A stretch of DNA of 64,000 bases from Rhodospirillales bacterium (GCA_046582495.1 JAYGEG010000160.1:81236-145235); one strand, 5' to 3'. Shown: positions 17,589 to 60,683, numbered from the stretch's first letter. The notes: generated from the sequence alone by a model not told the origin. A program made the numbers and translations.

Positions 17589-17630
17589 AGTTTGCCCGCC
17601 TTGCCATAACCTTTTCCGACCTATAGGTTG

Positions 17631-17663: not shown

Positions 17664-17683
17664 TGAAGGGCGTGTAAATACCC

Positions 17684-18706
17684 GTGACCAGTGAAATTGA
17701 ATTTTTAACCGACCACATTCCTGAGCCGGGCGAAGTGTATGAAATAACGCCGGGCATTCAGTGGATCAGGATGCCGCTGCCGTTTCTGCTCAACCATATC
17801 AATCTCTGGATGATCGAAGAGGAAGACGGCTGGGTCCTCATTGATACCGGCATTAATGACGAGCGAACCAAAGAGATTTGGCGCGATATCTTTGGGCGTG
17901 TACTCAATGGCAAGCCGCTCTCCAGATTGGTCTGCACCCATGCGCATCCGGATCATATTGGTCTCGGGGGATGGATCCATGAAGAATATGGTGCTGAGTT
18001 GGTTATTACCCGCGAAGAATGGGCCTTTGGCCGCATGATTTCGATGGGGGCGACCAAGGATGAAAAAACCTATTTCGACTATTTCCGCCGCATTGGGTGT
18101 GACGAAGAAAATTTAAATGATTTGGGCAGCCATATTCTTACCGCCGACGAACTTTATCATGATGTGCCGCGGCGCTATGAGCGTATGCGTGATGGCTCAA
18201 CGATCACGATTGCCGGAAAACAATGGGAAGTGATTGTCGGGCTGGGACATGCAGTGGAGCATGCGTGCCTATATTGTCAGGAGTTGGACGTGCTGATTGC
18301 CGGTGATCAAGTGTTGCCAAAAATCACGCCGACAATAATGGTGCACGCACCGGAGCCCGAGGCCGACCCGCTTAAGGATTTTCTCGACAGCAACGAGAAA
18401 CTTCGTCGCCTGCCTGATACAGTTACTGTGTTACCGAGCCATAACCGCCCGTTTACGGGGCTGCATGCGCGCCTCGACCAGTATATAGCCCATCATGACG
18501 AGCGATTGGATGTCGTGCTCAATGCCTGCGATAAGCCGCTTTCTGGCATGGAAGTCGCGGGCGTATTGTTTACGCGAGAATTGGATTTTCATGGCAAGTT
18601 TTTCGCCTCGGGTGAGGCAATGGCACATATTCGGCATCTAGAATATCAAGGCAAGCTCTCGCGAAGCATCGATACAGATGGCGTCGAGCGCTACCTGCGA
18701 GCCTAA
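17684..18706 (+). CDS. MBL-fold metallo-hydrolase
   Basis: 'THAHPDHIGLGG' (HxHxDH) is present, with later His/Asp ligand positions. GTG start. Confidence 0.75.
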   Translation: MTSEIEFLTDHIPEPGEVYEITPGIQWIRMPLPFLLNHINLWMIEEEDGWVLIDTGINDERTKEIWRDIFGRVLNGKPLSRLVCTHAHPDHIGLGGWIHEEYGAELVITREEWAFGRMISMGATKDEKTYFDYFRRIGCDEENLNDLGSHILTADELYHDVPRRYERMRDGSTITIAGKQWEVIVGLGHAVEHACLYCQELDVLIAGDQVLPKITPTIMVHAPEPEADPLKDFLDSNEKLRRLPDTVTVLPSHNRPFTGLHARLDQYIAHHDERLDVVLNACDKPLSGMEVAGVLFTRELDFHGKFFASGEAMAHIRHLEYQGKLSRSIDTDGVERYLRA

Positions 18707-42426: not shown

Positions 42427-43638
42427 TTAAGCGGCTTGCTTTAGCCCCAACTGACTCCAGACTTTCACCAGTGAATCGACGAGATGGTCCATCAGTTCGT
42501 CGTTGTGAAGCGGCGTTGGTGTAAAACGAAGGCGTTCGGTGCCGCGCGGCACGGTTGGATAGTTGATCGGCTGCACATAGACGCTGTAATTGAACAGCAA
42601 TTCATCGCTGGCTTGTTTGCACAAGACTGGATCACCCACCATCACCGGCACAATATGAGTTTCAGATGGCATAACCGGAATACCTGCATCGGTGAGGCGT
42701 TTTTTCAAAGTTGCTGCGCGTTCTTGGTGCTTCTCGCGCAATTCATTATGCTCTTTGACGTATTTGACGCTCGCCAATGCACCGGCAGCAACTGCGGGCG
42801 GCATTGACGACGAGAAAATAAAACCATCGCCAAAGGAGCGGACAAAATCGCACATGGATTCCGTTCCGGCAATATAACCGCCGACAACGCCAAATCCTTT
42901 GGCAAGAGTGCCTTGAATAATATCCAGGCGGTCCATCAAATTGTCGCGTTCCGCTACGCCGCCGCCATGTTCGCCGTAAAGGCCAACCGCGTGGACTTCA
43001 TCGATAAAGGTGAGAGCGTTGTATTTATCCGCGAGATCGCAAATCTCTTTGATCGGCGCGATGTCACCATCCATCGAATAGACGGATTCAAAGGCGATCA
43101 TTTTTGGACGATCCGGGCCGACCTCTTTCAATTTTGCTTCGAGGTCTTCCAAATCATTATGTTTGAAGATCAATTTATCAGAGCGCGAATGTTTAATACC
43201 GGCGATCATCGAGTTGTGGTTGAGGGCATCTGAAATGATTACACAATCCGGCATCATTTGGCCGATGGTGCTCAGCGCCGTTAAATTGGCAACATACCCA
43301 GACGTAAATATGAGACCGGCTTCCTTTTTGTGGAGTTCAGCGAGCTCTTGCTCAAGCAGGACATGATAGTGGTTGGTACCGGAAATATTTCGAGTGCCAC
43401 CAGCGCCCGCACCGCATTTGTCGAGAGCCTCATGCATCGCGTTCATGACGACAGGATTTTGACCCATGCCCAAATAATCATTAGAGCACCAGACAGTAAT
43501 ATTTGCAGTTCCGTTGGCCTGATAGTTTTTGGCCGTCGGAAAATTACCGGCTTCACGTTCCAAATCTGCGAAGACGCGATAATTGCCTTCGGCTTTCAGA
43601 GCAGCGACCTTATCTGCAAAAAATTGGTCGTAATTCAT
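42427..43638 (-). CDS. hemA: 5-aminolevulinate synthase
   Basis: 'MNYDQFF...EGNYRVFADLER', 'WCSNDYLGM' and the PLP-lysine region ('GTLAKGFG') are present. The start is set at ATG 43638 with 'gggaga' 8 nt upstream; the track ORF extends to a GTG at 43662. Confidence 0.93.
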   Translation of the reverse strand: MNYDQFFADKVAALKAEGNYRVFADLEREAGNFPTAKNYQANGTANITVWCSNDYLGMGQNPVVMNAMHEALDKCGAGAGGTRNISGTNHYHVLLEQELAELHKKEAGLIFTSGYVANLTALSTIGQMMPDCVIISDALNHNSMIAGIKHSRSDKLIFKHNDLEDLEAKLKEVGPDRPKMIAFESVYSMDGDIAPIKEICDLADKYNALTFIDEVHAVGLYGEHGGGVAERDNLMDRLDIIQGTLAKGFGVVGGYIAGTESMCDFVRSFGDGFIFSSSMPPAVAAGALASVKYVKEHNELREKHQERAATLKKRLTDAGIPVMPSETHIVPVMVGDPVLCKQASDELLFNYSVYVQPINYPTVPRGTERLRFTPTPLHNDELMDHLVDSLVKVWSQLGLKQAA

Positions 43639-43672
43639 GCTCATATTCTCCCAAAAACTCACGTTTCCTACT

Positions 43673-43745: not shown

Positions 43746-45140
43746 TTATTTCAAACCGCGGTCAATTATTATATCAAGCGTTTCATCCAAAGATTGTTCT
43801 ACGATGGACAACATTTCCTGTATTTGATTGTCCTCAATGATCAATGGCGGTGCAAAAGCGAGGCTATCGCCCATCGCGCGGGAGATTAATCCATTGGCTT
43901 GAGCACGGCCTGCTAGGTGAGCACCAACGCCGTCTGAAACCTCAAAAGATTGGCGGGTTTCCTTGTCTTTTACGAGTTCCAAGGCGCCGATGAGGCCAAC
44001 GCCGCGGGCCTCGCCCACCAAAGGATGCTCGGCCAGTTTTGCCAAGCCGCCTTGAAGAGCAGGCGCTGTCTCCTGCACATGGCTTATCAAATCCATTTCT
44101 TCGTAAATATTCATTGTTTCGAGTGCAACCGCGCAGGGAACCGGATGCCCGCCATAGGTAAATCCATGTCCAAAAACGCCAATTTTTTCACTTTCGACGA
44201 CCATCGACTGAAATATGTCCTCCGAAACCATCAATGCCGAAATCGGTAAATATCCGGATGATAGGGCTTTGGCGACAGTAATCATGTCGGGTTTAAGATC
44301 ATAAGTCTCCGATCCGAACATGTTTCCGGTGCGGCCAAAACCGCATATCACTTCATCAACAGCAAAAAGGATGTCGTATTCCATCAAGACAGCCTGAATT
44401 TTTTCGAAATAGGTTGCTGGCGGTGGAATAACACCACCGGCACCCATCACAGGTTCGGCAAAAAAGGCGGCGATGGTTTCCGGGCCTTCATCCAAAATGA
44501 GCGTTCTTAAATTCTCGGCGCAGCGCGTGGCGAACTCTACTTCAGTTTCGCCTTTTTCGCCATAGCGATAGAAATGTGGGCAATCAGTATGCAGAACTCG
44601 GGCCAGCGGTAGATCAAAATCCCGGTGATTATTTGGCAACCCTGTCATGCTCGCTGTCATTAAAGTGACACCGTGATAGCCTTTCTCGCGGGCGATGATT
44701 TTTTTCTTGTCCGGTCGGCCACGCGCATTGTTAATGTACCAGATGATTTTGACAGCTGTGTCGTTGGCTTCTGATCCGGAATTCGCAAAAAAGACTTTCG
44801 ACATCGGCACTGGCGCCATCTCTAAAAGTCGTTCCGCTAGATTGATCGCGGTTGGATGCGATTTACTGCCAAAAGCATGATAGAACGGAAGCTCTTCCAT
44901 GGCTTTGGTCGCTGCTTCGACCAGGCGTTTATTGTCAAAACCAAGAGCCGTGCACCATAGCCCCGCCAATCCTTCGATGTATTTAGTGCCGGCTTCGTCA
45001 TAGACAAAGATCCCTTCGCCTTTGGTGATGATCATTGGGCCGGAGTCTAAGTGACTAGAGAGATTGGTATACGGGTGAAGGAAGTTCTCGATATCCCGAT
45101 TGGCGAGAGAGTTTGAAAATCCATGTGTTGTTTTTGGCAT
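43746..45140 (-). CDS. Class III (omega) aminotransferase, aspartate aminotransferase superfamily
   Basis: It shows class III character, with 'FANSGSEANDTA', 'DEVICGFGRTG' and PLP-Lys in 'ITVAKALSSGYLP'. Its start overlaps the manC stop (TAATG). Confidence 0.88.
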   Translation of the reverse strand: MPKTTHGFSNSLANRDIENFLHPYTNLSSHLDSGPMIITKGEGIFVYDEAGTKYIEGLAGLWCTALGFDNKRLVEAATKAMEELPFYHAFGSKSHPTAINLAERLLEMAPVPMSKVFFANSGSEANDTAVKIIWYINNARGRPDKKKIIAREKGYHGVTLMTASMTGLPNNHRDFDLPLARVLHTDCPHFYRYGEKGETEVEFATRCAENLRTLILDEGPETIAAFFAEPVMGAGGVIPPPATYFEKIQAVLMEYDILFAVDEVICGFGRTGNMFGSETYDLKPDMITVAKALSSGYLPISALMVSEDIFQSMVVESEKIGVFGHGFTYGGHPVPCAVALETMNIYEEMDLISHVQETAPALQGGLAKLAEHPLVGEARGVGLIGALELVKDKETRQSFEVSDGVGAHLAGRAQANGLISRAMGDSLAFAPPLIIEDNQIQEMLSIVEQSLDETLDIIIDRGLK

Positions 45141-46585
45141 TACTCGCGTCCGTACTGATCGTCGAAGCGCTCAATGTCGTCTTCGCCAAGATAGTCACCG
45201 GATTGCACTTCAATAATTTGCAATTCATTTTCGGTGGTGTTTTCCAATCGATGCATGGTGCCAATCGGAATGTAGGTGGATTGGTTTTCTTCCAGCTCAA
45301 GGATATCTTCGCCGCGGGTGACGGTGGCGACACCAGAAACCACGACCCAATGCTCCGCCCGGTGTTGGTGGCGTTGCAGCGATATTTTAGCGCCGGGCTT
45401 GAGGCTAATTACTTTAACCTGAAAGCGATCACGCATTTCGAGCGTTTGATACCAACCCCATGGTCGGTACACTTTTGTATGATGTATGTGTTCGGACCGA
45501 TCGGCTGATTTTAGATCTTCGACAACTAATTTTACATCCTGGGCAGCCTCTTTCGAAGAAACCAAAATCGCATCCTGGGTCGCAACGATGATTGTATCGG
45601 TCAATCCAATTGCGGTAACTAATTTGTCCTCCGAGCGCACCAAGGAGTTGGTTGTGCCTTTTAAGATGACATCCCCGGTCGCGACGTTGCCGTTTTCATC
45701 TTTATCCAGAACCTGCCAAAGCGCATCCCAGGAGCCGACATCACTCCATCCCATATCAACAGGCACAACCGCAACGTCACTGGATTTTTCCATGACAGCA
45801 TAATCAATCGAATCAGAAGGGCAGGCGGCAAAAGCCTCTTCATCCAAGCGATGAAAATCAAGGTCGGTGATACTCTTGGAAACCGCATCGCGGCAGGCAG
45901 ATGAAATATCCGGCGACAACCGCTCTAACTCTTCCAAAAACTTGGCAACAGTGAAAAGAAAAATGCCGCCGTTCCAAAAATAGCCACCTTCTTTCAAAAA
46001 TCCTTGAGCCGTTAATAAGTCAGGTTTTTCGACAAACGCCTCAACGGTAAAGCAGCCTGGCGTCTCGCTCGCCTCGTCCGATTTTTTGATGTAGCCATAA
46101 CCGGTTTCCGGACCTGTCGGCTGAATGCCAAAGGTCACCAATGAGCCGTTGGCAGCTGCGGGTAGAGCGGCCTCGATTGCGGTTCGAAATGCTTTTTCGT
46201 CTTTGATCACATGATCGGACGGCATCAATAAAATGACCGCATTGGGATCGCGCTCGGCCATTATGATAGAAGCGACCGCCGCCGCCGGTGCGGTATTGCG
46301 GCCTATGGGTTCCAAAATGATTGCTTCGGGCGCGACGTCGATGTTCTGGAGTTGCTCAGCGACAATAAAGCGATGTTCCTGATTACAAATGATCAACGGA
46401 TTTGCAAAGCTCGCGCCCCTTAGACGCGACGCTGCCTCCTGCAACAGGCTCAGTTCAGAATGCAATGGCTGCAATTGTTTTGGATATAGCGCGCGAGAAA
46501 GCGGCCAGAGCCGCGTGCCGGAGCCACCGGAAAGAATAACCGGATAAATTTTGCCAGTTGATGTGTCAGCCATAGACGCGCTCAT
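45140..46585 (-). CDS. manC: Mannose-1-phosphate guanylyltransferase / mannose-6-phosphate isomerase (type II PMI)
   Basis: 'ILSGGSGTRLWPLSR' begins a nucleotidyltransferase N-terminus. The C-terminal cupin domain carries 'RPWGWY' and 'HRAEHWVVVSG'. Confidence 0.9.
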   Translation of the reverse strand: MSASMADTSTGKIYPVILSGGSGTRLWPLSRALYPKQLQPLHSELSLLQEAASRLRGASFANPLIICNQEHRFIVAEQLQNIDVAPEAIILEPIGRNTAPAAAVASIIMAERDPNAVILLMPSDHVIKDEKAFRTAIEAALPAAANGSLVTFGIQPTGPETGYGYIKKSDEASETPGCFTVEAFVEKPDLLTAQGFLKEGGYFWNGGIFLFTVAKFLEELERLSPDISSACRDAVSKSITDLDFHRLDEEAFAACPSDSIDYAVMEKSSDVAVVPVDMGWSDVGSWDALWQVLDKDENGNVATGDVILKGTTNSLVRSEDKLVTAIGLTDTIIVATQDAILVSSKEAAQDVKLVVEDLKSADRSEHIHHTKVYRPWGWYQTLEMRDRFQVKVISLKPGAKISLQRHQHRAEHWVVVSGVATVTRGEDILELEENQSTYIPIGTMHRLENTTENELQIIEVQSGDYLGEDDIERFDDQYGRE

Positions 46586-46667: not shown

Positions 46668-47588
46668 TTAAACATCTGCTTTTGGATCGAGCGCATCCTG
46701 CAGGCCATCACCTAGGAAATTAAAGGCGATCACGGTGATAAAAATCGCAATTCCCGGATAAAAAGCGAGCCAGGGCGCGCTGAAAATCAATTCCTGAGCA
46801 TTTGTCAAAAGATTACCCCAGCTGGCAACCGGCGGCTGAATGCCAAGGCCGAGAAAACTTAAAACTGATTCCAGCAGGATTATGTTGCCGATGGAAAGCG
46901 TTGTCGCGACAATAATAGGCGAAATTAGATTTGGCAGAATGTGAACGCTCATGATGCGAAAGGCACTTGCGCCCTGCACCTGGGCGGCGAGTACAAAATC
47001 TCGTTCGCGCAAACTTAATGCCGCCCCTCGAACTAGCCGCGCCACCGTTGTCCAGCCAACGACGGCAACAATAAATATAATGCGGTAAAGACTGATATTC
47101 TCGGATTGAATAATCGTCTCGGGCAAGCCGGTTTTAGAGAGGTCAATCGCCGCTAAAACAATCAGTAGAGGAAGCAGGGGAAGGGAGATAACGCTGTCGG
47201 TGAGCCGCATCAGGACGGCATCCAGCCAGCCACCGCGATAACCTGCGATCAATCCAATAATAGTTCCTAAAGTTGCGGCAACGAGGGCGGTTACCAGACC
47301 AACCAAGAGAGATACCTGCCCGCCATAGAGCATTCTTACAAATACATCGCGGCCTAATTCATCTCGGCCCAGCCAAGCACCTAAATCTGGCAAGGTGAAA
47401 CGGCTAAATAAATTTGCCTTGTTAGCATCAATATCCAGCAAGAATTCAAATAACGGCGCAGAAGCTGACAACAGACAGATGAAGATGAGATAGCACCCAC
47501 TGATGACCGCAAGTTTGTGTTTAAGGAAACGTCTGCCGGCCAGCGCCCAAGTTGATTGGCTTTTTGATTGAACTGCAAGCGTGCTCAT
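46668..47588 (-). CDS. ABC transporter permease (DppC/OppC type)
   Basis: A six-TM protein with an EAA-loop region ('SLRERDFVLAAQVQGAS') in BPD_transp_1 style. Confidence 0.85.
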   Translation of the reverse strand: MSTLAVQSKSQSTWALAGRRFLKHKLAVISGCYLIFICLLSASAPLFEFLLDIDANKANLFSRFTLPDLGAWLGRDELGRDVFVRMLYGGQVSLLVGLVTALVAATLGTIIGLIAGYRGGWLDAVLMRLTDSVISLPLLPLLIVLAAIDLSKTGLPETIIQSENISLYRIIFIVAVVGWTTVARLVRGAALSLRERDFVLAAQVQGASAFRIMSVHILPNLISPIIVATTLSIGNIILLESVLSFLGLGIQPPVASWGNLLTNAQELIFSAPWLAFYPGIAIFITVIAFNFLGDGLQDALDPKADV

Positions 47589-48554
47589 CTATTTGCCCTC
47601 GCCATATGAAATGCGTGGGTCAAGCCAGCCATAGGCGATGTCTGCTACCAGATTGCCAAGCAATGTCAAAACAGTGGCGAACATAAAAGCGACCATGGCG
47701 AGGTTGAAGTCATTGCCCATAATCGCATCAAAGATCAGTTTTCCCATGCCGGGATAGGCGAATATCGTTTCAGTGATGAGTGCGCCGGAGAACAAAAAGC
47801 CAAAGTCTAAGGCAAGTATCGTGACCACCGGGATGAGCGCGTTTCTAAGTGCGTGATGCCAGACAACTCGAGCCTCAGTCGCGCCTTTTGCCCGTGCGGT
47901 GCGGATAAAGTCCTGGCGCATCGTTTCCATCATTGCAGCGCGGACAAATCGGGTATGACTGCCGATGCTGGCAATAGTTAAGGTCGCAATTGGCAAGATG
48001 AGAAATTTAGCACTATCCCAAAAGCTCGAGAGCCCGCCGATTGTTTCTGTGCCACTCGCGGGCAACACACCCAGAATAACTGAGAACAGCGTTATTAACA
48101 GCAGTGCCAACCAGAAAGATGGAATGGAAATGCCGGCGAAGGCAGCAAGATTGATCAGATAGTCGGTTCCGGTATATTGCCGGATGGCGGCATAGATACC
48201 AGCCGGCAAGGCGAGCAGAACCGATAAGATAAAACTAATACCGAGTAAAATAACGGTGTTGCCAAGGGCTGGCCACAAAACAGTAAGGACAGGTTTCACA
48301 TGAAGGCGCGAAAAGCCAAAATCGCCGCCAATAGCTGCGGTCAACCAATTCACATATCGTTCCGTGATGGGGCGGTCGAGTCCGTAGAGTTCTCGTAAGC
48401 GAATTGCATCTTGGGCCGTGAGTTTAGGGTCCGCGCTGATCATCAGATCGATTGGGTCGCCCGGCATCAAACCCATCAGCCAATAGATGACAAAAGACAT
48501 CATCGCCAAAACGATCAGGGATTGAAGCAATCTATCTAACAGATATCGCGCCAC
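47589..48554 (-). CDS. ABC transporter permease (DppB/OppB type)
   Basis: The N-terminus 'ARYLLDRLLQSLIVL' and the region 'QDFIRTARAKGA' are typical. GTG start. It directly abuts the next permease gene. Confidence 0.85.
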   Translation of the reverse strand: MARYLLDRLLQSLIVLAMMSFVIYWLMGLMPGDPIDLMISADPKLTAQDAIRLRELYGLDRPITERYVNWLTAAIGGDFGFSRLHVKPVLTVLWPALGNTVILLGISFILSVLLALPAGIYAAIRQYTGTDYLINLAAFAGISIPSFWLALLLITLFSVILGVLPASGTETIGGLSSFWDSAKFLILPIATLTIASIGSHTRFVRAAMMETMRQDFIRTARAKGATEARVVWHHALRNALIPVVTILALDFGFLFSGALITETIFAYPGMGKLIFDAIMGNDFNLAMVAFMFATVLTLLGNLVADIAYGWLDPRISYGEGK

Positions 48555-48573
48555 GTCAGTTTCTCTTTCTCAT

Positions 48574-48597
48574 AAAAAAACCTGCCAATTGGCAGGT
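48574..48597 (-). terminator. Rho-independent terminator after the flaF-like gene
   Basis: acctgcc (48580-48586) pairs with ggcaggt (48591-48597) around loop aatt. On the minus strand it is followed by a seven-T run (48574-48580, the last base shared with the stem). It lies only ~20 nt upstream of the permease start. Confidence 0.6.
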
Positions 48598-48648
48598 CAT
48601 TTTAGAACGTTCCGGCGATTATGGCGACCGCCGGTGTATCGGGGGATA

Positions 48649-48960
48649 TTAAGCGCCTTCCATCAGGCCTTCAGCAATATTCAAATTTATATTGGTCAGA
48701 CCTCTTGAAGTTTGTTTATCAACGAAAATGCTAAGGCTCATCAGATTGGCTTTGAGCTCTTCCGGAAGCGCATTGTCCTTTTCGGCGACATCAGCTTGGA
48801 TAATTGACCATAGCAACTGATTGTATTTCAGCGCTCTTTCACCCATTTCGGTATCGTCTACTTTCTGGCGAGCTTGACCTAAAACATACGCTGCTTGCGA
48901 AAATGCGGCAGCATCCATCTCACGCTTATTGTCAAATTGAACTTTTGCTTCGTCAGCCAT
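48649..48960 (-). CDS. FlaF-like flagellar biosynthesis regulator (orphan)
   Basis: 'YNQLLWSIIQADVAEKDNALPEELKANLMSLSIFVDKQTS...NLNIAEGLMEG' follows the FlaF pattern I recall (N-x-x-LW...N-x-LP-x-x-L+A-x-x-x-SL-x-x-W/F-V). SD 'agggga' lies 8 nt upstream. Confidence 0.5.
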   Translation of the reverse strand: MADEAKVQFDNKREMDAAAFSQAAYVLGQARQKVDDTEMGERALKYNQLLWSIIQADVAEKDNALPEELKANLMSLSIFVDKQTSRGLTNINLNIAEGLMEGA

Positions 48961-49101
48961 GTGGTAATCCCCTAAATTGGCATCATTATCAGCATTCGAC
49001 CCTAATCGAATAGGCTAAATAAAATGTTAAAAAAATATACGGCATTTTTTCGGCTATGTACAAATTTTGTTAGCGTTTTTATACATTACTGAAAAAAGTT
49101 C

Positions 49102-50067
49102 TTATTTTTCAGGACTTACAGCTATCGGGCAGGCTGCGAGGTGGGAGGCATCTTGAGACCCGATATAATCCAATAGAGGTATCGTTTCACGGCAAGAATT
49201 CGCCATTTTTGGGCATCTTGGGTGGTAGGCACATCCACTCGGAGGAGACAGCGGACTGGCTGCCTCGCCGCGCAGCAACAGGCTCTTTTTGCGCTTGCCG
49301 CGCCCGATAATTGGAGCCGCTGATATCAATGCCTGCGTGTAGGGGTGAATTGGATTTTTAAAAATTGATTCGGATTGGCCAATTTCTACGATTTTCCCTA
49401 AATACATGACGATAACTCGGTCAGCGAGATGGGCGACGGATGCTAAATCGTGACTGATGAACAAATAGGTTAAATTTCGCTCTTTTTTCAGATTTACCAG
49501 TAGATTTATAATTTGGCTTTGGATCGATACATCGAGGGCGGAAAGCGGCTCATCGGCGATGATGATTTCAGGGTCGGAAATGATGGCGCGAGCAATTGCG
49601 ATACGCTGACGCTGCCCGCCGCTGAATTGATGAGGATATTTCATCATGTCACTTTCTTGAAGGCCAACGCTTTCAAGAGTTTCAATCACGCGTCGGCATT
49701 TTTCGGCAGCATTTCCAATTTTATGAATAACGAGAGGCTCCGAAATAATATCGCCAACCGTCAATCTTGGATTAAGCGAGGCATAAGGATCCTGGAAAAT
49801 CATTTGAATGTTTTTTCTTAAATCAGTGCCTCTATATTCAATGGTGCCGTTGTCAGGCTGATGAAGCCCGGTGATAACGCGCGCCAAAGTTGACTTTCCG
49901 CAGCCTGACTCGCCGACGATAGCCAGCGTTTCTCCCGCCTCAAGTGTCAGCGATATGTCGTTTAAGGCATGGACCGTTCCCCGTGAGGCGCCAAACAATC
50001 CCGGTGCTTTTAACTCGAAGCGCTTAACAAGATTGTCGATTTTTAATAACGCTGCAGTTTCCGTCAT
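49102..50067 (-). CDS. ABC transporter ATP-binding protein (DppF/OppF type)
   Basis: Walker A 'GESGCGKST', signature 'FSGGQRQRIAIARA', Walker B 'IIADEPLSALD' and an Opp C-terminal extension are present. Confidence 0.9.
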   Translation of the reverse strand: MTETAALLKIDNLVKRFELKAPGLFGASRGTVHALNDISLTLEAGETLAIVGESGCGKSTLARVITGLHQPDNGTIEYRGTDLRKNIQMIFQDPYASLNPRLTVGDIISEPLVIHKIGNAAEKCRRVIETLESVGLQESDMMKYPHQFSGGQRQRIAIARAIISDPEIIIADEPLSALDVSIQSQIINLLVNLKKERNLTYLFISHDLASVAHLADRVIVMYLGKIVEIGQSESIFKNPIHPYTQALISAAPIIGRGKRKKSLLLRGEAASPLSPPSGCAYHPRCPKMANSCRETIPLLDYIGSQDASHLAACPIAVSPEK

Positions 50068-51041
50068 ATCGGCTCTTCAAGTTTTAAGCAGGCGGCGCGT
50101 TGCCTTGGGGCGAGTTCAAAGGTCGGAATATCGTGCAGATGGCATTCGGATATCGCTTCGCTGCAACGCGGCGCAAATCGGCAGCCTTGCAATTGGTCAT
50201 AGCGGGTCGGTACGCTGCCCTCAATTGTCGTGAGCTGCTTTCCTCGGTGTTCGGGCCCCGGCAAGGTCGATAGCAATCCTTTGGTATAAGGGTGCTCGGG
50301 TGCTTCGAATATTATCGGCGCCGGCGAGGTTTCCATCAATCGTCCGCCATACATCACCATAACATCATCAGCAATTTCGGAGACGACGCCAAGATTATGA
50401 CTGATGAACAGGATCGCCATTTTAAATTCTTCCTGCAGGTCGATCAGGAGATCAAGGATTTGAGCCTGCACCGTTGTGTCCAAGGCCGTCGTCGCTTCGT
50501 CAGCGATCAAGATGTCTGGCTCGCATATCAACGCCATTGCAATAACCGCGCGCTGGCGCATGCCGCCGGATAGATTATGTGGGTAGTCCTGAGCCCGCAA
50601 AGCTGCATCCGGGATGCCGACGCGGTCCAGCATCGAAATTGCCTTTTGATTGGCTTCTTGTTTGGAGCAATCACTATGAATTAAAAGAGCTTCGGCAATT
50701 TGCGCACCGATCGTCAAAACCGGATTGAGCGCCGTCATCGGTTCCTGGAAGATCATCGCGATCGTGTTGCCACGGAGTTGCCGCATCGGTTCCTTTGCTA
50801 ATTGGAGGATATCTTCTCCATTCAGGTAGATTTCGCCGGCAGAAATTTTTCCAGGCGCAGGAATCAGACGCAACAGCGATAGCGCTGTAAGAGATTTGCC
50901 GCTGCCGCTTTCACCGACCAGTCCCAAGGTTTTTCCGGCCTCCAATTCAAAAGATAATTCCGAGACCGCGCGAAACAGGCCATCTTCTAATTGGAAGCTG
51001 ATTTCCAAATCTTTGACCGAAAGGAGGGGGACGCTATTCAT
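50064..51041 (-). CDS. ABC transporter ATP-binding protein (DppD/OppD type)
   Basis: Walker A 'GESGSGKS', signature '[12 protein letters not shown]' and Walker B '[11 protein letters not shown]' are present. It has a 4-nt overlap with the next ATPase gene and an 8-nt overlap with the upstream fusion gene. Confidence 0.9.
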
Positions 51042-53937
51042 TTTCGGCTTCCAACATGTTCGCCTCTTTCAAATGCAGAGGATTGATATGCTCATGGGCT
51101 AAATCAGGTTCGCCGCAATGTTCCAAAATAGCTGACCTGACACGGTTCCGTAAATCTATCGCAGATTGCCAGCTTTGGTCAGCACTAGATGTCTCAGGCG
51201 TAATCGACGGCAAAATTTCAACCTGGATGCGTCCGGGACGAGGAAAGCCTGTATCATCTCGCAATATGGCGCGCGTGCCACGCAACGCTATCGGGACAAT
51301 CACTGCCTTAGCATTGGTGGCGGATGTGAAAGCGCCCATTTGAAAAGGCAGCAGGCCTGTCATTCTGGTGAATGTCCCTTCGGGGAAATACACCAATTGG
51401 CGATCCTGTTCGATTGCCTCTGTCACCAAATCGGAATCCTCGACGCTTTTTGATTTTTGAAAGCGCTCGACAAACACGGTTCCGAGTCTTGTCAAAAATA
51501 GGCGCGAGATGAAATTGCCAGCCAGTTCGGACTTTGCGACAAATCCTGGCATACCCGGAAGTAATGAAATCAGTGCGGCAGCATCAACGTAACTCGCGTG
51601 GTTGGAGACAAATATAAATCGCTGGTCCTGTGGGATGTTTTTTTGTCCCGATATGGAAAGCTGTATGTTGCCAAGCCGAAACACCAGCCAAAGAATAACC
51701 CGCAAAAACGCAAACCGTAATGCCTTTATCGGCAACAGAGCCGTGGCGATCCAGGCGATTGGGGTTGCCACCGCCATTAGTGCATACATATAAATTGCGT
51801 AGGCCCAGGAAACTGTGGAACGGACAGCCTGTTGAAAGCTCGGTCGAATGCCGGCTACCGCCAATCTAAATATTTGCCATTTTACCGACATTCGGGATTG
51901 GTTCGCTGTAAGCCCTTGTTCGAATAATGCTCGTGCTGCGGCGCGGCGAATTTTGCCGCTCGAGGTCTTGGGCACTGTTCGGGGTGGGACCAGCTCGATT
52001 TGATCCGGCGGCGTGCCGGTTAAATCAAGTGCAATGGATCTGATCTCTGAAATCATTTTCTGTTGAGCATCTTTGCCTCGCCTTCGAGATTCTGCCATCA
52101 CGACAAGTCGTTCCGTGCCGGAAGTTGGATCTGGGCTGCCAAAGACCGCGACATTGCCTTTCTGAATGCCGTCAATCAAACCGACCGCTTCTTCTAATTC
52201 GACGGGGAATATGTTTCTGCCAGCTCGAATGATCAAATCTTTCTGACGGCCCGTAATAAATATCTCGCCATCCGCCATATAGCCGAGGTCGCCGGCATTG
52301 CGCCAATCGCCGTCCATCAAATCATTCGTTGCCTGTGCATTGCGGATATAGCCCGAGGTAGAGGAGGGGCCAAAAAATTGAACCTGGCCTTCCTGGCGTT
52401 CCGGCAGCTCATGTCCGGTTGGGCCGACGATCCTGATTTGATGGCCGGGCAAAGCACTGCCGCAAGAAGGAATTTCCATGGCGCTTTCATCCTCAAATTT
52501 GGACGGCCGGGCGATACCGGACTTCATAAATGTATCGCGGTCAATTTTATCGATGCGGGGCCCGCGTTCGAGAGGTGAAAAAGATAAGCCGACCGAGTTC
52601 TCTGCCAGACCATAGACAGGCTTCATCGCCTCAGCGCGAAATCCATATCGAGCAAAGCGTTCGGTAAATTGTGCCATTGTTTTGGGGCTAACCGCTTCAG
52701 CACCATTAAACGCCACCCGCCATGAGCTTAGATCCAAGCCTTCCAAATCTTCGTCTTTCAATCGATTGACGCAGGCTTCATAGGCAAAATTCGGCGCGCC
52801 GGAGATCGTTCCTTTATAGCGATGGATGGCTTGCAACCAGCGTTGCGGACGCGCCAGAAAACTCAGCGGAGACATAATAACCAACGGAACGGCATGGGTT
52901 AGACTGCCAAGCCACGCTCCGATCAATCCCATATCGTGATAGAGCGGCAGCCAGGAGATAAAAACATCTTCGCAGGTTGCGTTGAGCGCTTTTCCCATCA
53001 CGCGCACATTGCTGACGAGATTGCTGTGACTTAGGACCACGCCTTTAGGGTCGCCCGTGCTGCCCGACGTAAACTGCAAAAAAGCGGTATCGGATTCTAC
53101 AGGCTCTGGAAAACGACTAAGCGGCGCGGCGCTCATGAGTTCATCACAGGTTATCACGTCTCGAAGCGATGGCACTTGAGCGGATAATAAATGTGAGAAC
53201 ATTTTGGCTTCTGGCACGGTAATCATCAGGCCAGCCAGAGCGGTATCCGCAATTTTGGCATGGCGTAAAATATGATCTTCTAATTGTTGAGGACGTCCAG
53301 GAGGATAAATCGGTACCGGCACACCACCGGCGAGCAGCACGCCGAAAAAACTAATGAAATAATCGCGCCCGGTTGGCAGCATCAATAGAACGGATTCGCC
53401 CGGCGACAAGTGGCGTTCAATCAATCCGGCAGCGATTTTTTCGGCTTCGACCAATAATTCACCGTAGGTGATTGTCTCTGCCGGGACATCCTCTGAGTTT
53501 GTGTCTGAATAAAGATGGATATGGATGCGCTCGGGATGCTGGGCAGCGTGCCATTTCAGAATCGCATTCAAAGTGCCGAGCTCCTCAGGGGCAGGCGCTG
53601 CTTTCTCAGGTTGCTGAGTTTTGATCGTCGTGAGTGTTGCAGAAGCAACTTCTGATCCACCCGCTTCCATGAGAATATCTTTGAGGGTATCGGATTGACT
53701 GAGCGCCCGTTCTGAAAAAGTAATTTTAAACTCTTGTTCTACGCGATGGAGGAGTTCAAGGCGTGATAGACTGTCGAAACCAAGATCGCGCTCTAACGAT
53801 TTTTCAAGTGAAACGATTTCGGACAATTTCTGTCCCGGGTGAAGCTCCTCCGCCAGTTCGGCTGCGAGGGCCAGCAGGCGCTCCGGTGAAACAACGGGTG
53901 AGAGATTATTCGAGATATTATTAGAGGTTTCGCTCAT
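51034..53937 (-). CDS. Tri-domain fusion: acyl carrier protein + fatty-acyl-AMP ligase (FAAL-type adenylation) + TM segment + PlsC/LPLAT acyltransferase
   Basis: ACP: 'LGFDSLSRLEL' (Ser56). Adenylation: 'FTSGSTGDPKGV', 'SWLPLYHDMGLIG', 'YGLAENS', 'GDLGYMADGEIFITGRQKDLII', 'KTSSGKIRR'. A hydrophobic stretch spans about aa 708-755. LPLAT: 'NHASYVD' (HX4D, aa 779-785), 'FPEGTFTR', 'VIVPIALRGT'. Confidence 0.85.
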   Translation of the reverse strand: MSETSNNISNNLSPVVSPERLLALAAELAEELHPGQKLSEIVSLEKSLERDLGFDSLSRLELLHRVEQEFKITFSERALSQSDTLKDILMEAGGSEVASATLTTIKTQQPEKAAPAPEELGTLNAILKWHAAQHPERIHIHLYSDTNSEDVPAETITYGELLVEAEKIAAGLIERHLSPGESVLLMLPTGRDYFISFFGVLLAGGVPVPIYPPGRPQQLEDHILRHAKIADTALAGLMITVPEAKMFSHLLSAQVPSLRDVITCDELMSAAPLSRFPEPVESDTAFLQFTSGSTGDPKGVVLSHSNLVSNVRVMGKALNATCEDVFISWLPLYHDMGLIGAWLGSLTHAVPLVIMSPLSFLARPQRWLQAIHRYKGTISGAPNFAYEACVNRLKDEDLEGLDLSSWRVAFNGAEAVSPKTMAQFTERFARYGFRAEAMKPVYGLAENSVGLSFSPLERGPRIDKIDRDTFMKSGIARPSKFEDESAMEIPSCGSALPGHQIRIVGPTGHELPERQEGQVQFFGPSSTSGYIRNAQATNDLMDGDWRNAGDLGYMADGEIFITGRQKDLIIRAGRNIFPVELEEAVGLIDGIQKGNVAVFGSPDPTSGTERLVVMAESRRRGKDAQQKMISEIRSIALDLTGTPPDQIELVPPRTVPKTSSGKIRRAAARALFEQGLTANQSRMSVKWQIFRLAVAGIRPSFQQAVRSTVSWAYAIYMYALMAVATPIAWIATALLPIKALRFAFLRVILWLVFRLGNIQLSISGQKNIPQDQRFIFVSNHASYVDAAALISLLPGMPGFVAKSELAGNFISRLFLTRLGTVFVERFQKSKSVEDSDLVTEAIEQDRQLVYFPEGTFTRMTGLLPFQMGAFTSATNAKAVIVPIALRGTRAILRDDTGFPRPGRIQVEILPSITPETSSADQSWQSAIDLRNRVRSAILEHCGEPDLAHEHINPLHLKEANMLEAENE

Positions 53938-54125: not shown

Positions 54126-54503
54126 ATGAATAGATTTCTCAAATTTGGTTTGATAGCAGTGTTGGTGTCGTCAGGCACGCTAGGCTTTTCTTTTGGTAAA
54201 GCCTCGGCGAGTGAACGAGTGCATCTGTCCCCCTTCATGGTCAATGTGATTGAAGACGGCGGCAAAAAAACAGGTCAGCTGCCGATTTCTGTTTATCTTG
54301 ATCTCAAAGATGTAGAGTCAGCGAGATATGTCTGTGGCATCGCACCCAGAATTCGGGCTCAAATTACCCGAAATTTGGTCTCTGATAGATATCAATTGGA
54401 TCGCAAGGGCAGATTACCATTAGCTAAAATTCGGCTCAAACTCTGGCCAATTGCCTATAGAGTTATAAAAAATGTGAAACTACAAAATATGCTGGTTGCA
54501 TAA
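54126..54503 (+). CDS. Small secreted/anchored protein, weakly FliL-like
   Basis: It has an N-terminal hydrophobic signal or anchor. 'HLSPFMVNVIEDGG...LPISVYLDLKD...APRIRAQITRNL' resembles the FliL core pattern. Recognition is weak. Confidence 0.35.
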   Translation: MNRFLKFGLIAVLVSSGTLGFSFGKASASERVHLSPFMVNVIEDGGKKTGQLPISVYLDLKDVESARYVCGIAPRIRAQITRNLVSDRYQLDRKGRLPLAKIRLKLWPIAYRVIKNVKLQNMLVA

Positions 54504-54592
54504 GGCACAGGCAAGGTTAGTAGTTCTGAAGCACGTATGTTTACCCGGCGAGATTGCCGCCGTCTTTCGAAAGGGAAATAGTTGAGGTAACC

Positions 54593-56694: not shown

Positions 56695-58353
56695 CTACTT
56701 CTTAACGCCCCAGTTTTCGATCCACAAAGTGGTCGTGCCTTGATGCCCGGTTGGTGTTACGCCGGTCAGCCATTTTGGCAAAATGTAAGAATTGGCACGG
56801 AAGTAGAGCGGAATTACGGGCAACTCTGTCGCATATATTTGTTGGAAGCGATGCCAGAGCTTTTCGCGTTTTGTTCGATCCAATTCGACTTCAATTTGCT
56901 CGAGCAGTGTATCCATCTCAGCATTTTTAAAACCGGTGTAATTTTGTCCGCCCCAGTTGTTTTCCTTGGTCGGAATATGGGCCGAATGAAGCGTTGAGCG
57001 CGGCACGCTTTCAGGCGCGCTGAGCCAGGCAAACATCGCAAGACCTGTGTATTTTCGCTGAGTGACGGTCTGGCCAAAGAAAACCCGGGCGGGTTGGTTG
57101 CGGATTCGGATTTCGACTCCGAGCTGCTTCCATTGGCTTTGCAAGACCTGCTCAACCAATTCGCGGGTTCGATTGCCCGCTGTCGTCATCAGCTCAAATG
57201 AAAGTTTGTCACCCTTGGCATTGTAGCGAATGCCGCGTTTTTTAATCGACCAGCCGGCCTGGTCCAGAAGCTTGCCAGCGGCCTTGAGATCGAAGCTATA
57301 GATCGGCGTGTTTTTTGTATAAATCCAATCGAGCGGATTGATGTTGGTGTCGGCGACCGGTTGGCGGCCGTCAAACAACTGACTTGAGATCGCTTGACGG
57401 TCGATGCCGCGGATCAGCGCTTCGCGTACGCGTTTATCTTTGAGCAAAGGGTTGTCAAGATTGAGATCAATATGCTCGTAGATCAGGCCCGATTTGTAAA
57501 TCATGTTGAATTTCTTGCCGTGACGTTTGCCGAAGGCCAACGCCTGATCGATGGTGATGCCGAGATCGCCAGAGATCATATCGATTGCGCCTGACAACAA
57601 ATTTGCTTCGAGCGCAGCGGTGTTACCAATCACGCGTATAACAACTTGTTTGAAGTGCGGTTTTTTGCCCCACCAGGTTTCGTTCGGCACCAGCACAACA
57701 TGCGCGCCAGACCTTACTTCGCTGATCCGGTAGGGACCAAAATACAGCCCTTTGTTGGTCGTGTCGGTATCAAATCTGGTGCGGTTGCGGTATTCGGCGG
57801 GCGCTTTATCGAATATTTCTTCGTCGAGATGCGCGGGCAGTACTTCGAAACCGTTTATATCGTTATAGGCAAATGTCAGCTTGTCGAAATGCAGCGTGAA
57901 GGTTTTTTCATCAATGGCATCGACTTTGTAGGCACGGCGATAGAATTCCAGCCCGCTCACACCGCTTTTTGGATGGCGACCCACTTTCCAGGTAAAGATG
58001 ACGTCTTTGGAGGAAACCGGACGGCCATCGCCCCAATTTGCATTTGGCTGGATGGTATACGTAACGGCGATGCCTTTTTTACCGTTGGGCGCGGTCTCAG
58101 GCTTGGCGAGGCCATTCTCAATGGTCGGTAGTTTTGTGCAGAGCATGCATTTTAACTGCCAACTCGGGTCCTGTACGGTGAACGGCCGCCGAGTTGCCGA
58201 CAAAATATAGGTCTTCGCCAGCATGGAATCGATATTGGGATGAAAGGTCGACGGGAATTGCGTGATACCAATGACGAGGCGTTCCTTTGCCTCGGCAAGA
58301 CTGGTGAAAGCAATCACCAGACCCGCTATTATTGTGATTAGAAGTCGTTTCAT
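56695..58353 (-). CDS. ABC transporter substrate-binding protein, family 5 (peptide/nickel type)
   Basis: It has a signal peptide, is 552 aa long, and shows SBP_bac_5-like sequence. It is convergent with nnrS and separated from the rest of the ABC genes. Confidence 0.88.
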   Translation of the reverse strand: MKRLLITIIAGLVIAFTSLAEAKERLVIGITQFPSTFHPNIDSMLAKTYILSATRRPFTVQDPSWQLKCMLCTKLPTIENGLAKPETAPNGKKGIAVTYTIQPNANWGDGRPVSSKDVIFTWKVGRHPKSGVSGLEFYRRAYKVDAIDEKTFTLHFDKLTFAYNDINGFEVLPAHLDEEIFDKAPAEYRNRTRFDTDTTNKGLYFGPYRISEVRSGAHVVLVPNETWWGKKPHFKQVVIRVIGNTAALEANLLSGAIDMISGDLGITIDQALAFGKRHGKKFNMIYKSGLIYEHIDLNLDNPLLKDKRVREALIRGIDRQAISSQLFDGRQPVADTNINPLDWIYTKNTPIYSFDLKAAGKLLDQAGWSIKKRGIRYNAKGDKLSFELMTTAGNRTRELVEQVLQSQWKQLGVEIRIRNQPARVFFGQTVTQRKYTGLAMFAWLSAPESVPRSTLHSAHIPTKENNWGGQNYTGFKNAEMDTLLEQIEVELDRTKREKLWHRFQQIYATELPVIPLYFRANSYILPKWLTGVTPTGHQGTTTLWIENWGVKK

Positions 58354-60395: not shown

Positions 60396-60683
60396 ATGGC
60401 GCGTGACAATTCTAAAGCCCAAGATCTGGTGGGCAAGGGGGCCGAGGCTCACCAAGCCGGTCAATTCGACAAAGCGGAAAAGTATTACAAACGCGCGTTA
60501 AAAGCCGATGGTAATAACGCAGATGCGCTTCACCTATTGGGCCTGATATCTCATCAAAAAGGGCGAAATGAATACGCAGCTAAATTGATTGGTAAAGCTT
60601 TGGCGGTCCGACCCCATGAGCCCGCGATGAACACTCAATATGGCGATTGTTATGAACGCTTTGTCGCGCTGGGAAGAGGCTGA
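60396..60683 (+). CDS. TPR-repeat ORF, probably the frameshifted 5' part of the downstream TPR-sulfotransferase gene
   Basis: TPR sequence ('AEKYYKRALKADGNNADALHLLGLISHQKG') runs to about aa 80 and then degenerates. The TPR pattern continues in the +1 frame at about 60630. Confidence 0.4.
   Translation: MARDNSKAQDLVGKGAEAHQAGQFDKAEKYYKRALKADGNNADALHLLGLISHQKGRNEYAAKLIGKALAVRPHEPAMNTQYGDCYERFVALGRG

Follow-up and report, generated by a model that had tools for sequence, protein, structure and literature searches.

The gene for an ACP-FAAL-LPLAT fusion enzyme overlaps the first ATPase gene of an Opp/Dpp-type ABC importer in the 64,000-nucleotide stretch of Rhodospirillales DNA analysed here (the window), where the core reads enzyme, ATPase, ATPase, FlaF, permease, permease. 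Twelve distinct loci from marine Rhodospirillales-like alphaproteobacteria, the window and 11 others, share this arrangement (fusion, D, F, FlaF, B, C). The module is an old one, passed on vertically within a single clade of these bacteria and probably co-transcribed. We tentatively favour the reading that enzyme and importer are functional partners in it; the conserved adjacency in the clade makes such a working partnership plausible. The features of the locus are listed in Table 1.

Table 1. Genes, enzyme domains and regulatory sites of the locus, in window coordinates.
Feature	Position	Strand	Basis
ACP-FAAL-LPLAT fusion gene, 967 aa	51034..53937	(-)	ORF call and Pfam
ACP (PP-binding) domain of the fusion	aa 39-88, nt 53823-53674	(-)	Pfam; DSL motif with Ser56 invariant
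AMP-binding domain of the fusion	aa 128-530	(-)	Pfam; FAAL domain aa ~128-677, nt 53556-51907
Two hydrophobic segments of the fusion	aa ~712-760, nt 51804-51658	(-)	Hydropathy
PlsC-type acyltransferase domain of the fusion (PF01553)	aa 761-885, nt 51657-51283	(-)	Pfam, E 5.1e-25
OppD/DppD-like ATPase 1, 325 aa	50064..51041	(-)	ABC_tran and oligo_HPY (Pfam)
OppF/DppF-like ATPase 2, 321 aa	49102..50067	(-)	ABC_tran and oligo_HPY (Pfam)
Promoter-like motif upstream of FlaF	49031..49064	(-)	Alignment and promoter scan
FlaF homologue, 103 aa	48649..48960	(-)	Pfam PF07309
Terminator-like hairpin after FlaF	48572..48598	(-)	Terminator scan and alignment
OppB/DppB-like permease, 321 aa, GTG start	47589..48554	(-)	BPD_transp_1_N and BPD_transp_1
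OppC/DppC-like permease, 306 aa	46668..47588	(-)	OppC_N and BPD_transp_1
orf125, small envelope protein, FliL-like predicted fold	54126..54581	(+)	Clade homologues and AF2 model
Family-5 periplasmic binding protein, 552 aa, Sec-type signal peptide	56695..58353	(-)	SBP_bac_5

Gene layout and its conservation

The gene junctions given in the preliminary description were confirmed. The fusion and ATPase 1 genes share 8 nt (ATGAATAG, 51034-51041), the two ATPase genes overlap by 4 nt according to their ORF coordinates, and the permease genes abut exactly at 47589/47588. The FlaF-like gene does lie between the ATPases and the permeases (Pfam PF07309, E 5.6e-20), and the SBP_bac_5 gene is detached, 2758 nt from the fusion start, behind three plus-strand genes (orf125, an alpha/beta hydrolase and NnrS). 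An 82-nt gap leads up to manC, which is joined to an aminotransferase gene by TAATG. A class I/II aminotransferase gene further downstream (43662..42427) encodes 5-aminolevulinate synthase (ALAS; 665 bits with TIGR01821, whose cut-off is 338), not a lipid-type oxoamine synthase. The neighbouring ManC, aminotransferase and ALAS genes are conserved too, but their assignments are of the usual housekeeping kind and suggest no part in a lipid pathway.

The fusion/ABC adjacency was looked for in related genomes and is present in the 12 loci, where protein identity runs from ~57% (fusion, D, F) up to 81% (ALAS). The stop/start overlap of fusion and ATPase 1 recurs in seven loci, with the 8 nt of the window also found in L084/85, L088 and L091, 11 nt in L081 and 4 nt in L095; L092 has a 2-nt gap, L082, L089 and L090 have gaps of 70-170 nt, and in L003 a 5.8-kb island with an HNH endonuclease parts the fusion gene from the ATPases, both of which are still intact. 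Because the adjacency is conserved across a deep clade, often with the same overlap, it is not a recent rearrangement accident, and the chance juxtaposition that the preliminary description had left as an alternative is refuted by the 11 other loci. An artefact of assembly, or a recent chance rearrangement confined to this genome, could appeal to the unusual gene order and to nothing further, but the same order occurs in independent JGI, ENA, NCBI and Logan assemblies at 53-76% protein identity, and the probability of this explanation is negligible. The suggestion that the adjacency might recur across genomes held within one monophyletic clade, but not in general, as 79 of the 80 best genome loci of the enzyme family lack it.

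In a neighbour-joining tree the Opp-linked enzymes group as a single clade, which shows that the enzyme/ABC link arose once. All of the conservation may therefore reflect one event followed by inertia, and a second account has to be weighed, in which a stand-alone lipid acyltransferase gene came, a single time, to sit ahead of the ATPase genes in an ordinary peptide importer locus. Enzyme and importer would then have a promoter in common but neither substrate nor complex, and the arrangement would persist as the genomes rearrange little and separation would cost a promoter. Such operon hitch-hiking is a real possibility, although we lean somewhat against it. Beyond the single origin, it is favoured by the synteny of the whole 20-kb region, in which the housekeeping neighbours (ManC, aminotransferase, ALAS, AphA-like) are conserved equally, and by the tolerance of the 5.8-kb insertion at the fusion/ATPase junction in L003; these three points, together with the gaps of 70-170 nt, count against a partnership. 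However, a stop/start overlap kept in seven lineages is the translational-coupling pattern seen for partners. Insertions, moreover, gather at the flanking junctions: 6 of 11 loci carry extra genes between C and ManC, and nearly all carry some between SBP and fusion, whereas the core has a single interruption only among the loci compared. L093, which its ManC and AT3 identities place inside the clade, lost the whole set of SBP, FliL-like gene, fusion, D, F, B and C at this locus and retained FlaF alone, so that enzyme and transporter disappeared jointly. The recurrent overlap, the conserved core, the restriction to a single clade and this joint loss are counted for the partnership, in which the fusion gene would be on the same transcript as both importer ATPase genes and translationally coupled to them in most lineages.

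The ACP-FAAL-LPLAT enzyme

The enzyme had been described as an Aas-like fusion, a label that did not survive at the family level. It scores 190.6 bits with NF006386 against a cut-off of 1221 and 153 bits with NF005291 against 1349, the matches to these Aas models cover just fragments of its adenylation domain, and its domain order (ACP, adenylation, acyltransferase) is the reverse of that in E. coli Aas, where the acyltransferase is N-terminal, the adenylating domain C-terminal and the ACP provided in trans. The adenylation domain is of the FAAL type: its top NCBIfam matches are FAAL models, all under the full-length cut-offs; the top PDB matches of the enzyme are the FAAL structures 7r7g, 3pbk and 3kxw, and also FadD32; and the alignment with 7r7g is colinear across the FAAL-specific insertion region after the YGLAE motif, with gaps of 1-2 residues only. 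Judged from the sequence, the ACP in cis with its invariant DSL serine would fit FAAL-type acyl transfer to holo-ACP, with CoA rejected.

Invariant residues of the enzyme were taken from an alignment of 18 sequences. Across these, N779-H780-x-S782-x-x-D785 of the HX4D region and F822-V823-x-R825 of the acyltransferase domain are invariant, and in the EGT(R) motif E853 and G854 never vary, while T855 and R858 are nearly invariant; the C-terminus carries the complete PlsC/LPLAT set of HX4D, FxxR and EGT(R). These acyltransferase motifs, which include the positions through which PlsC binds the acceptor phosphate, are counted for the partnership together with the DSL serine and the FAAL-type adenylation domain.

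An Aas-like mode of working is nonetheless plausible, with a free fatty acid moved first to the ACP and from there to a lipid acceptor. The protein may be a self-sufficient, membrane-anchored lipid acylating enzyme, Aas-like in its working and outside the Aas family, whose FAAL domain would adenylate a free fatty acid and load the enzyme's own N-terminal ACP, bypassing CoA, and whose PlsC-type C-terminal domain would hand the acyl chain on to an acceptor in the membrane, most probably a lysophospholipid. We infer both this chemistry and the co-transcription of the module.

The enzyme family is present in at least 598 species, usually as a stand-alone gene, which agrees with hitch-hiking and counts against the partnership. 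The 79 of 80 best genome loci without an ABC neighbour, most of them without any conserved neighbour whatever, indicate that the enzyme chemistry does not need this transporter. On the other side, an ATG22-like MFS gene adjoins the enzyme gene in 9 of the 80, in scattered, unrelated genomes and in varied orientations. That the family is repeatedly found beside another transporter type speaks against hitch-hiking and for the partnership, and echoes LplT-Aas logic.

The importer, the FlaF unit and orf125

Two BPD_transp_1 permeases, two ATPases with ABC_tran and oligo_HPY domains and an SBP_bac_5 protein make up an importer of the Opp/Dpp type. The ATPases have intact Walker A, Walker B, signature and H-loop motifs, a point for the partnership, and ATPase 1 carries four C-terminal Cys. 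Within the clade the ATPases are far less conserved (57%) than the permeases (75%), the OppB/DppB-like permease being 69-84% identical. Against the NCBIfam equivalogs OppA-F, DppA-F, Nik, Gsi, Sap, Yej and Cnt, the importer parts stay under every cut-off (Opp4C 313 against 350, PRK11308 386 against 408, Opp4A 140 against 650) and do not reach a characterised substrate class. The detached binding protein is presumed to be the partner of the transporter and separately transcribed, and its gene keeps its position in L082, L084, L088, L091, L092 and L003. Its closest solved relatives are peptide binders (best 2d5w, 1e-71; also AppA), and no feature of lipid binding turned up.

The preliminary description had proposed an ABC-based counterpart of LplT-Aas. 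The conserved pairing of enzyme and transporter stood, but the Aas identity fell away, and the lipid cargo found no support, the best solved relatives of the binding protein being peptide binders. In the strict form of the proposal, binding protein and importer would capture or flip a lysophospholipid, another lysolipid or a lipopeptide from the periplasm and the enzyme would re-acylate it at the inner leaflet, which we regard as unlikely. Its attractions are the logic in common with LplT-Aas (PMC11416262, PMC8926400), the intact PlsC-type motifs, the probable translational coupling of the fusion and ATPase genes, and the clade-specific, membrane-anchored periplasmic protein (orf125) beside the enzyme gene. 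However, the nearest solved binding proteins tell against it, as does the lack of any lipid-binding feature among the findings, and the nearest system outside the clade is led by a CapA-family protein whose sole match is a peptide epimerase model, below cut-off. In addition, lipid transport is not known for any family-5 binding protein or BPD_transp_1 importer. Type I importers in general are not known to handle lipids. The peptide-like binding protein is also what hitch-hiking would lead one to expect, and both its relatives and this general point about type I importers count against the partnership. If enzyme and importer are partners nonetheless, as we tentatively hold, the importer may bring in, or regulate the supply of, a compound used by the enzyme or one whose uptake needs lipid repair, and on present evidence this cargo would be peptide-like rather than lipid.

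The FlaF homologue scores 71.9 bits with Pfam PF07309 against a cut-off of 23.6, placing it in this family, and 73 bits with the NCBIfam equivalog PRK12794, under its cut-off of 91; it is ~11 aa shorter than its relatives, and close homologues carry the name FlaF at NCBI. On its 5' side lies the promoter-like motif TTGTACA-N-AAATGCCGTATATTTTTT (promoter scan match 49062..49034), whose GCCGTATA-like core is kept in 9 of 11 other loci, including the transporter-less L093, and degraded in L089 and L003; we take its -10 element to resemble a sigma-28 type element. Directly 3' of FlaF, the hairpin GACCTGCCAATTGGCAGGTT is followed by a T run, as in an intrinsic terminator, and this run overlaps the start of the 25 nt between the stem and the permease GTG. 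The hairpin is the best terminator-like site within 42-58.6 kb and is conserved in most related loci, L093 included, where FlaF is retained between TPR and ManC without transporter and fusion. FlaF is an autonomous inserted unit with its own promoter and terminator, not a transporter component. As it is equally tightly held yet independent, tight adjacency at this locus is not proof of a common function, a control that suits hitch-hiking and counts against the partnership. The location of the binding-protein and permease genes in other transcription units also counts against the partnership; expression of the permease genes probably depends on read-through out of the FlaF unit.

The orf125 family is clade-restricted and divergent to the fusion gene, and in most clade loci a homologue sits immediately upstream of the fusion, though none was detected in L089 or L003. 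In the window copy, an in-frame TAA at codon 126 truncates the reading frame (ORF end 54503), and there is also a G143D change. In a fold search with its AF2 model (pLDDT 85), the best matches were FliL periplasmic domains, at a weak level (probability 0.95-1.0, E ~0.02, TM 0.4-0.6), and searches of Pfam and PDB gave no sequence match to FliL. This predicted FliL-like fold, the FlaF homologue inside the locus and the apparently sigma-28-like -10 of its promoter might suggest a motility or envelope locus whose transporter and enzyme serve flagellar assembly or regulation. We consider this highly improbable, as neither FlbT nor any flagellar Pfam family was found in any locus or in the window parts scanned (13.9-64 kb), so that FlaF here does not accompany FlbT or a flagellin gene, as FlaF stays in L093 where everything else is lost, and as the FliL match of orf125 is weak and without counterpart at the sequence level.

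Comparison with known systems

Among 72,556 plasmids, the closest transporter relative outside the clade is encoded by pAtH25_79a of A. tumefaciens (NZ_CP123849.1), with identities of 51% for D, 53% for F, 51% for B, 51% for C and 39% for SBP. Its operon reads CapA-family, D, F, B, C, SBP. As in the window, an enzyme gene leads and the ATPases follow, which is counted for the partnership and against hitch-hiking; unlike in the window, the leading gene is of the CapA family (sole NCBIfam match the MslH lasso-peptide epimerase model, below cut-off) and not an acyltransferase, the binding-protein gene comes last, at the 3' end, and FlaF is absent. The order that had been called scrambled was thus reported correctly but is less scrambled than supposed, since pAtH25_79a also has enzyme, D, F, B, C, A, and enzyme, D, F, B, C, (A) may be the natural order of this importer subfamily. 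With canonical Opp/Dpp systems (A-B-C-D-F) the window has in common the two BPD_transp_1 permeases, the two oligo_HPY ATPases and the family-5 binding protein, but its ATPase genes come first, a foreign FlaF gene and a terminator separate them from the permease genes, and its binding-protein gene stands apart.

Myxococcus ElbD-type multidomain lipid enzymes combine an adenylating domain, an ACP, a reductase and an acyltransferase. They would resemble the window enzyme in joining an ACP, a domain that activates fatty acids and a glycerolipid acyltransferase domain within one polypeptide, and differ from it in having a reductase domain and another domain order. A FAAL fused to a lysophospholipid acyltransferase, the same domain combination as in the window enzyme, has been reported as a PKS/NRPS-independent FAAL architecture with no specific function assigned (PMC8460268, PMC12820801). 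These surveys do not describe an N-terminal ACP within a conserved tri-domain protein, nor do they connect the architecture with an ABC importer, an ATG22-like MFS or a FliL-like protein.

LplT and Aas are a transporter/acyltransferase pair that forms a complex (PMC11416262), a precedent counted for the partnership. The E. coli pair has an MFS flippase, whereas the window has a binding-protein-dependent Opp/Dpp-type ABC importer, and the window enzyme differs from Aas in its reversed domain order, its own ACP and an adenylation domain of the FAAL rather than the acyl-ACP synthetase type. In the window, too, a transporter is encoded beside the enzyme, with overlapping genes, but this transporter is neither an MFS protein nor LplT, and its binding protein resembles peptide binders. 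Both systems nevertheless place a transporter gene and the gene of a fatty-acid-activating lipid acyltransferase in one operon, and both combine adenylate-forming and PlsC-type acyltransferase domains with an ACP as acyl carrier.

Gene layout, conservation and the L093 locus

Re-reading of the sequence bore out all the sequence-level claims of the preliminary description, namely the gene overlaps, the abutting permease genes, the gene order and the distant binding protein gene. The stop of the ACP-FAAL-LPLAT fusion gene (ACP, fatty acyl-AMP ligase and PlsC-type acyltransferase) and the start of the gene for ATPase 1 (D, OppD/DppD-like) overlap by 8 nt with the common sequence ATGAATAG, the genes for ATPases 1 and 2 (F, OppF/DppF-like) overlap by 4 nt, and those for permeases 1 and 2 (B and C, OppB/DppB- and OppC/DppC-like) abut. 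Three plus-strand genes, encoding orf125 (a FliL-like small envelope protein), an alpha/beta hydrolase and NnrS, lie between the gene of the family-5 binding protein (SBP) and the fusion. The scanned part of the window (13.9–64 kb) is housekeeping chromosome, with dxs, ispA, aroC, an enoyl-ACP reductase-like gene, an RND efflux pump and a TPR-sulfotransferase, and holds no flagellar genes. No Rfam family was matched anywhere in the window, and there is therefore no riboswitch hint at a ligand. Where the window has the TPR-sulfotransferase, genes for large TPR proteins, one or two per locus, are found in related loci.

Features of the locus and of two compared loci (window positions unless another sequence is named; identity is the mean pairwise value across clade loci)
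Feature	Coordinates	Strand	Identity	Remark
TPR repeats fused to sulfotransferase domain	60640-62385	+		581 aa
Family-5 SBP	58353..56695		76%	only one present; 2758 nt upstream of fusion
orf125	54126-54503	+		family-length extent to 54581
Fusion protein	53937..51034	-	58%	967 aa
ATPase 1 (D)	51041..50064	-	57%	
ATPase 2 (F)	50067..49102	-	57%	
FlaF unit with promoter-like motif and terminator	48572-49064; L093, 9800-10580	-		strand given for the window
FlaF homologue	48960..48649	-	77%	
Permease 1 (B)	48554..47589	-	75%	
Permease 2 (C)	47588..46668	-	75%	
ManC	46585..45140	-	60%	82-nt gap before
Class III aminotransferase	45140..43746	-	70%	TAATG junction
Class I/II aminotransferase, 5-aminolevulinate synthase (ALAS)	43662..42427	-	81%	TIGR01821, 665 bits
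pAtH25_79a system (L096)	NZ_CP123849.1, 172556-179606			order CapA-family enzyme, D, F, B, C, SBP

The core of fusion, D, F, FlaF, B and C is present in the window and in loci L081, L082, L084/85, L088, L089, L090, L091, L092, L095, L097 and L003 from other genomes and metagenomes, usually with TPR genes and the SBP upstream and ManC, aminotransferase and ALAS downstream. The closest metagenomic homologues of the enzyme were traced by exact-protein look-ups, at 53–76% identity; look-ups of FlaF homologues provided an independent second route with an agreeing result, and a metagenome contig scan with a single protein gave no match beyond the window's own contig. The Opp-linked enzymes group as a single clade by neighbour-joining, and the mean identities of 57–81% across its loci indicate that this clade is deep. 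The preliminary description had offered a chance rearrangement as its alternative; conservation of the core across 12 loci of the deep clade rules out a recent chance juxtaposition as well as an assembly artefact.

At the fusion/D junction the two genes overlap by 8 nt in the window, L084/85, L088 and L091, by 11 nt in L081 and by 4 nt in L095; they are separated by 2 nt in L092, 22 nt in L097 and 70–170 nt in L082, L089 and L090. In L003, a 5.8-kb island (12866-18664) with an HNH endonuclease gene and three ORFs without Pfam match lies exactly between the fusion and the ATPase genes, which is the only interruption of the core among the clade loci. Extra genes have entered the junction of C and ManC in six of 11 loci and the SBP–fusion interval in nearly all, the latter being an insertion hot spot; in L082, the gene of a HigB-like toxin, together with a small partner-like gene (7333-7944), is inserted between the SBP gene and NnrS, and in L003 the SBP gene is directly upstream of the fusion. 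D and F are fused into one gene of 603–606 aa in L090 (13041-14861) and L097 (8057-9868). The fusion is split into two ORFs in L081 (1396-4263), and the SBP and ALAS genes are each split in L089 (3321-4998 and 21585-22627), representing either frameshifted pseudogenes or assembly errors. ALAS, the class III aminotransferase and ManC stay next to one another across the clade for no evident functional reason.

FlaF has its own promoter-like motif (TTGCAAG/TTGTACA-N-AAATGCCGTATATTTTTT), preserved in most of the loci compared and degenerate in L089 and L003, and a terminator hairpin (ACCTGCC...GGCAGG, then a T run), which is conserved in most loci and is the best terminator-like site in 42–58.6 kb. 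Neither FlbT nor flagellar genes were found near it. Locus L093 equals L082 in its closeness to the window (ManC 66% and aminotransferase 75% identity). It reads TPR, FlaF, ManC, aminotransferase, and FlaF has the same promoter and terminator there; a search of this locus found no SBP, FliL-like gene, fusion, D, F, B or C, nor relics of them. FlaF, kept there without the transporter, is therefore not a transporter component, and its position shows that genes of this locus can stay tightly adjacent for long without depending on each other functionally. The L093 lineage lost transporter, enzyme and FliL-like gene jointly. In the window, the T run of the FlaF terminator ends ~18 nt before the permease GTG, so that transcription reading through from the FlaF unit most likely drives B and C. 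The fusion, D and F diverge fast and the SBP, FlaF, B and C slowly, a pattern matching three putative transcription units of which the fast set is one. The ATPases (~57%, 49102-51041) are thus less conserved than the permeases (~75%, 46668-48554) and the SBP (76%) in loci L081–L097, which is, to our knowledge, the reverse of the usual pattern in ABC importers; the uneven divergence could reflect different expression levels.

The FlaF control also bears on the enzyme, which might have been carried along purely as a hitch-hiker of the importer genes, an alternative that is well possible even if we lean slightly against it. Besides adjacency without dependence, it is favoured by the single origin of the fusion/Opp link, by synteny that is region-wide and includes housekeeping genes without evident link to the module, and by the tolerance of L003 to its interruption. 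The recurrent stop/start overlap at the fusion/D junction, a core free of insertions over deep time save one, and the joint loss of enzyme and transporter in L093 argue for a partnership instead.

The fusion enzyme and its relatives

Pfam domains of the fusion are PP-binding (aa 39–88), AMP-binding (128–530) and Acyltransferase (PF01553, 761–885), with two hydrophobic segments (~aa 712–760) N-terminal to the acyltransferase domain. The preliminary description had called the protein Aas-like, yet it is no member of the Aas family: the domain order is opposite to that of Aas with the ACP in cis, and the enzyme is FAAL-type, FAAL models ranking top in NCBIfam and Aas models staying far under their cut-off (190 vs 1221 bits). 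The nearest solved structures are the FAALs 7r7g, 3pbk, 3kxw and FadD32, and the alignment with 7r7g is colinear across the FAAL-specific insertion region. The DSL serine of the ACP (S56) and the acyltransferase motifs N-H-x-S-x-x-D (779–785), F-V-x-R (822–825) and E-G (853–854) are invariant in an 18-sequence alignment.

The chemistry of FAALs and PlsC-type enzymes is established, and on this basis the fusion would adenylate a free fatty acid and load its own ACP, after which the acyl group would be passed at the membrane to a lysolipid-type acceptor. By analogy, the fusion may therefore work like Aas in its reaction. The FAAL-acyltransferase fusion has been described as an uncharacterised, PKS/NRPS-independent FAAL architecture (PMC8460268, PMC12820801), and the tri-domain protein is named merely "AMP-binding protein" in RefSeq.

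The genome scan detected relatives of the enzyme in many phyla, with at least 598 species represented. The expectation that the fusion is repeatedly adjacent to OppD/F-like ATPases holds within the one clade of 12 loci and fails elsewhere, Opp-type genes lying nearby in a single one of the 80 best loci (L003, a Rhodospirillales MAG); the enzyme family is mostly stand-alone, which again counts in favour of hitch-hiking. When all adjacent ORFs of these 80 loci were clustered, the sole conserved neighbour, and the sole recurrent one outside the Opp-linked clade, was an ATG22-like MFS protein (PF11700), adjoining the enzyme gene in nine loci of scattered lineages and in varied orientation (L018, L020, L027, L031, L052, L053, L058, L061 and L070). 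The enzyme family is thus independently tied to another transporter type elsewhere, which favours partnership. Identification of this MFS protein as LplT was rejected, as NCBIfam gives it no support.

The transporter, its plasmid relative and orf125

All transporter parts are generic members of the Opp/Dpp/Nik family that score below every equivalog cut-off. Both ATPases have intact motifs and four C-terminal cysteines, located in the oligo_HPY region (C287/293/300/318 in ATPase 1, C279/285/292/313 in ATPase 2), a pattern that may recall the Fe-S cluster site described for certain Opp ATPases. The SBP has a Sec-type signal peptide, and among solved structures its best relatives bind peptides: 2d5w (1e-71), followed by AppA. 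This peptide-like character counts against a partnership, and the specific reading of the preliminary description, in which the importer would supply a lysolipid in the manner of LplT-Aas, is unlikely.

Among 72,556 plasmids, the sole close relative of the transporter is on Agrobacterium tumefaciens pAtH25_79a, with identities of 51% for D, 53% for F, 51% for B, 51% for C and 39% for the SBP. Its leading enzyme has a single NCBIfam match, under cut-off, to the MslH lasso-peptide epimerase model. The window clade and the plasmid system have in common the ATPase-first order and a leading enzyme gene, thus this order is not peculiar to the window clade. The common order lends some support to the idea that the leading enzyme may act on the transporter cargo, and this template favours partnership; the comparison also points to peptides.

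The orf125 family comprises 41 proteins found only with the Opp-linked clade, encoded directly and divergently upstream of the fusion in most clade loci; no homologue was detected in L003 and L089. Its members share two invariant cysteines and a hydrophobic segment at the N-terminus, with no match in Pfam or among PDB sequences, and an AF2 model (pLDDT 85) weakly matches the periplasmic domains of FliL as its best folds. Compared with a 99%-identical homologue of 151 aa, the window orf125 has an in-frame TAA at codon 126 and G143D, and therefore looks truncated or decaying.

Enzyme–importer partnership and its meaning

On these grounds, an enzyme–importer partnership of some kind is quite possible, if just short of probable. 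Precedent is provided by LplT-Aas, which extends to a physical complex (PMC11416262). A far more specific form would join the importer, the enzyme and the FliL-like protein into a hitherto unrecognised envelope machine, in which an amphiphilic or lipid-derived compound (a lysolipid, lipopeptide or acyl acceptor) would be brought in from the periplasm and re-acylated with free fatty acid independently of CoA; we consider this unlikely.

Other candidates were rejected. A downstream aminolipid or sphingolipid pathway, comprising the aminotransferases, ManC and an oxoamine synthase together with the enzyme, fails because the oxoamine synthase is ALAS and ManC is a standard GMP/PMI enzyme, and because both stay when transporter and enzyme are lost. 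The alpha/beta hydrolases of several loci are not orthologous and match generic models only, and do not represent one conserved lipase partner.

The architecture of the enzyme is already known and uncharacterised, and its conserved coupling to an Opp-type importer appears to be new: the literature search found no description of a cluster of FAAL-acyltransferase and Opp genes, nor of a coupling of the enzyme to a FliL-like protein or an ATG22-like MFS. The least costly way towards a function for the widespread, functionally unassigned ACP-FAAL-LPLAT is through a conserved partner in the genome, of which two kinds appear: an Opp-type ABC importer, in a marine alphaproteobacterial clade that is abundant, and, in lineages scattered elsewhere, an ATG22-like MFS. 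Should there be no partnership, the locus would clearly document how two unrelated genes (FlaF, and perhaps the enzyme) can stay inside a transporter locus for very long, a useful caution for guilt-by-association annotation. If it is real, a peptide-type importer family would have a lipid- or amphiphile-handling role in ocean bacteria, and the principle of transport-coupled lipid repair would extend beyond LplT-Aas. The locus belongs with the operons combining a transporter and a lipid acyltransferase; the envelope machine, if true, would give a tri-domain enzyme family of hundreds of bacterial species its first function, as an ABC-based functional counterpart of LplT-Aas.
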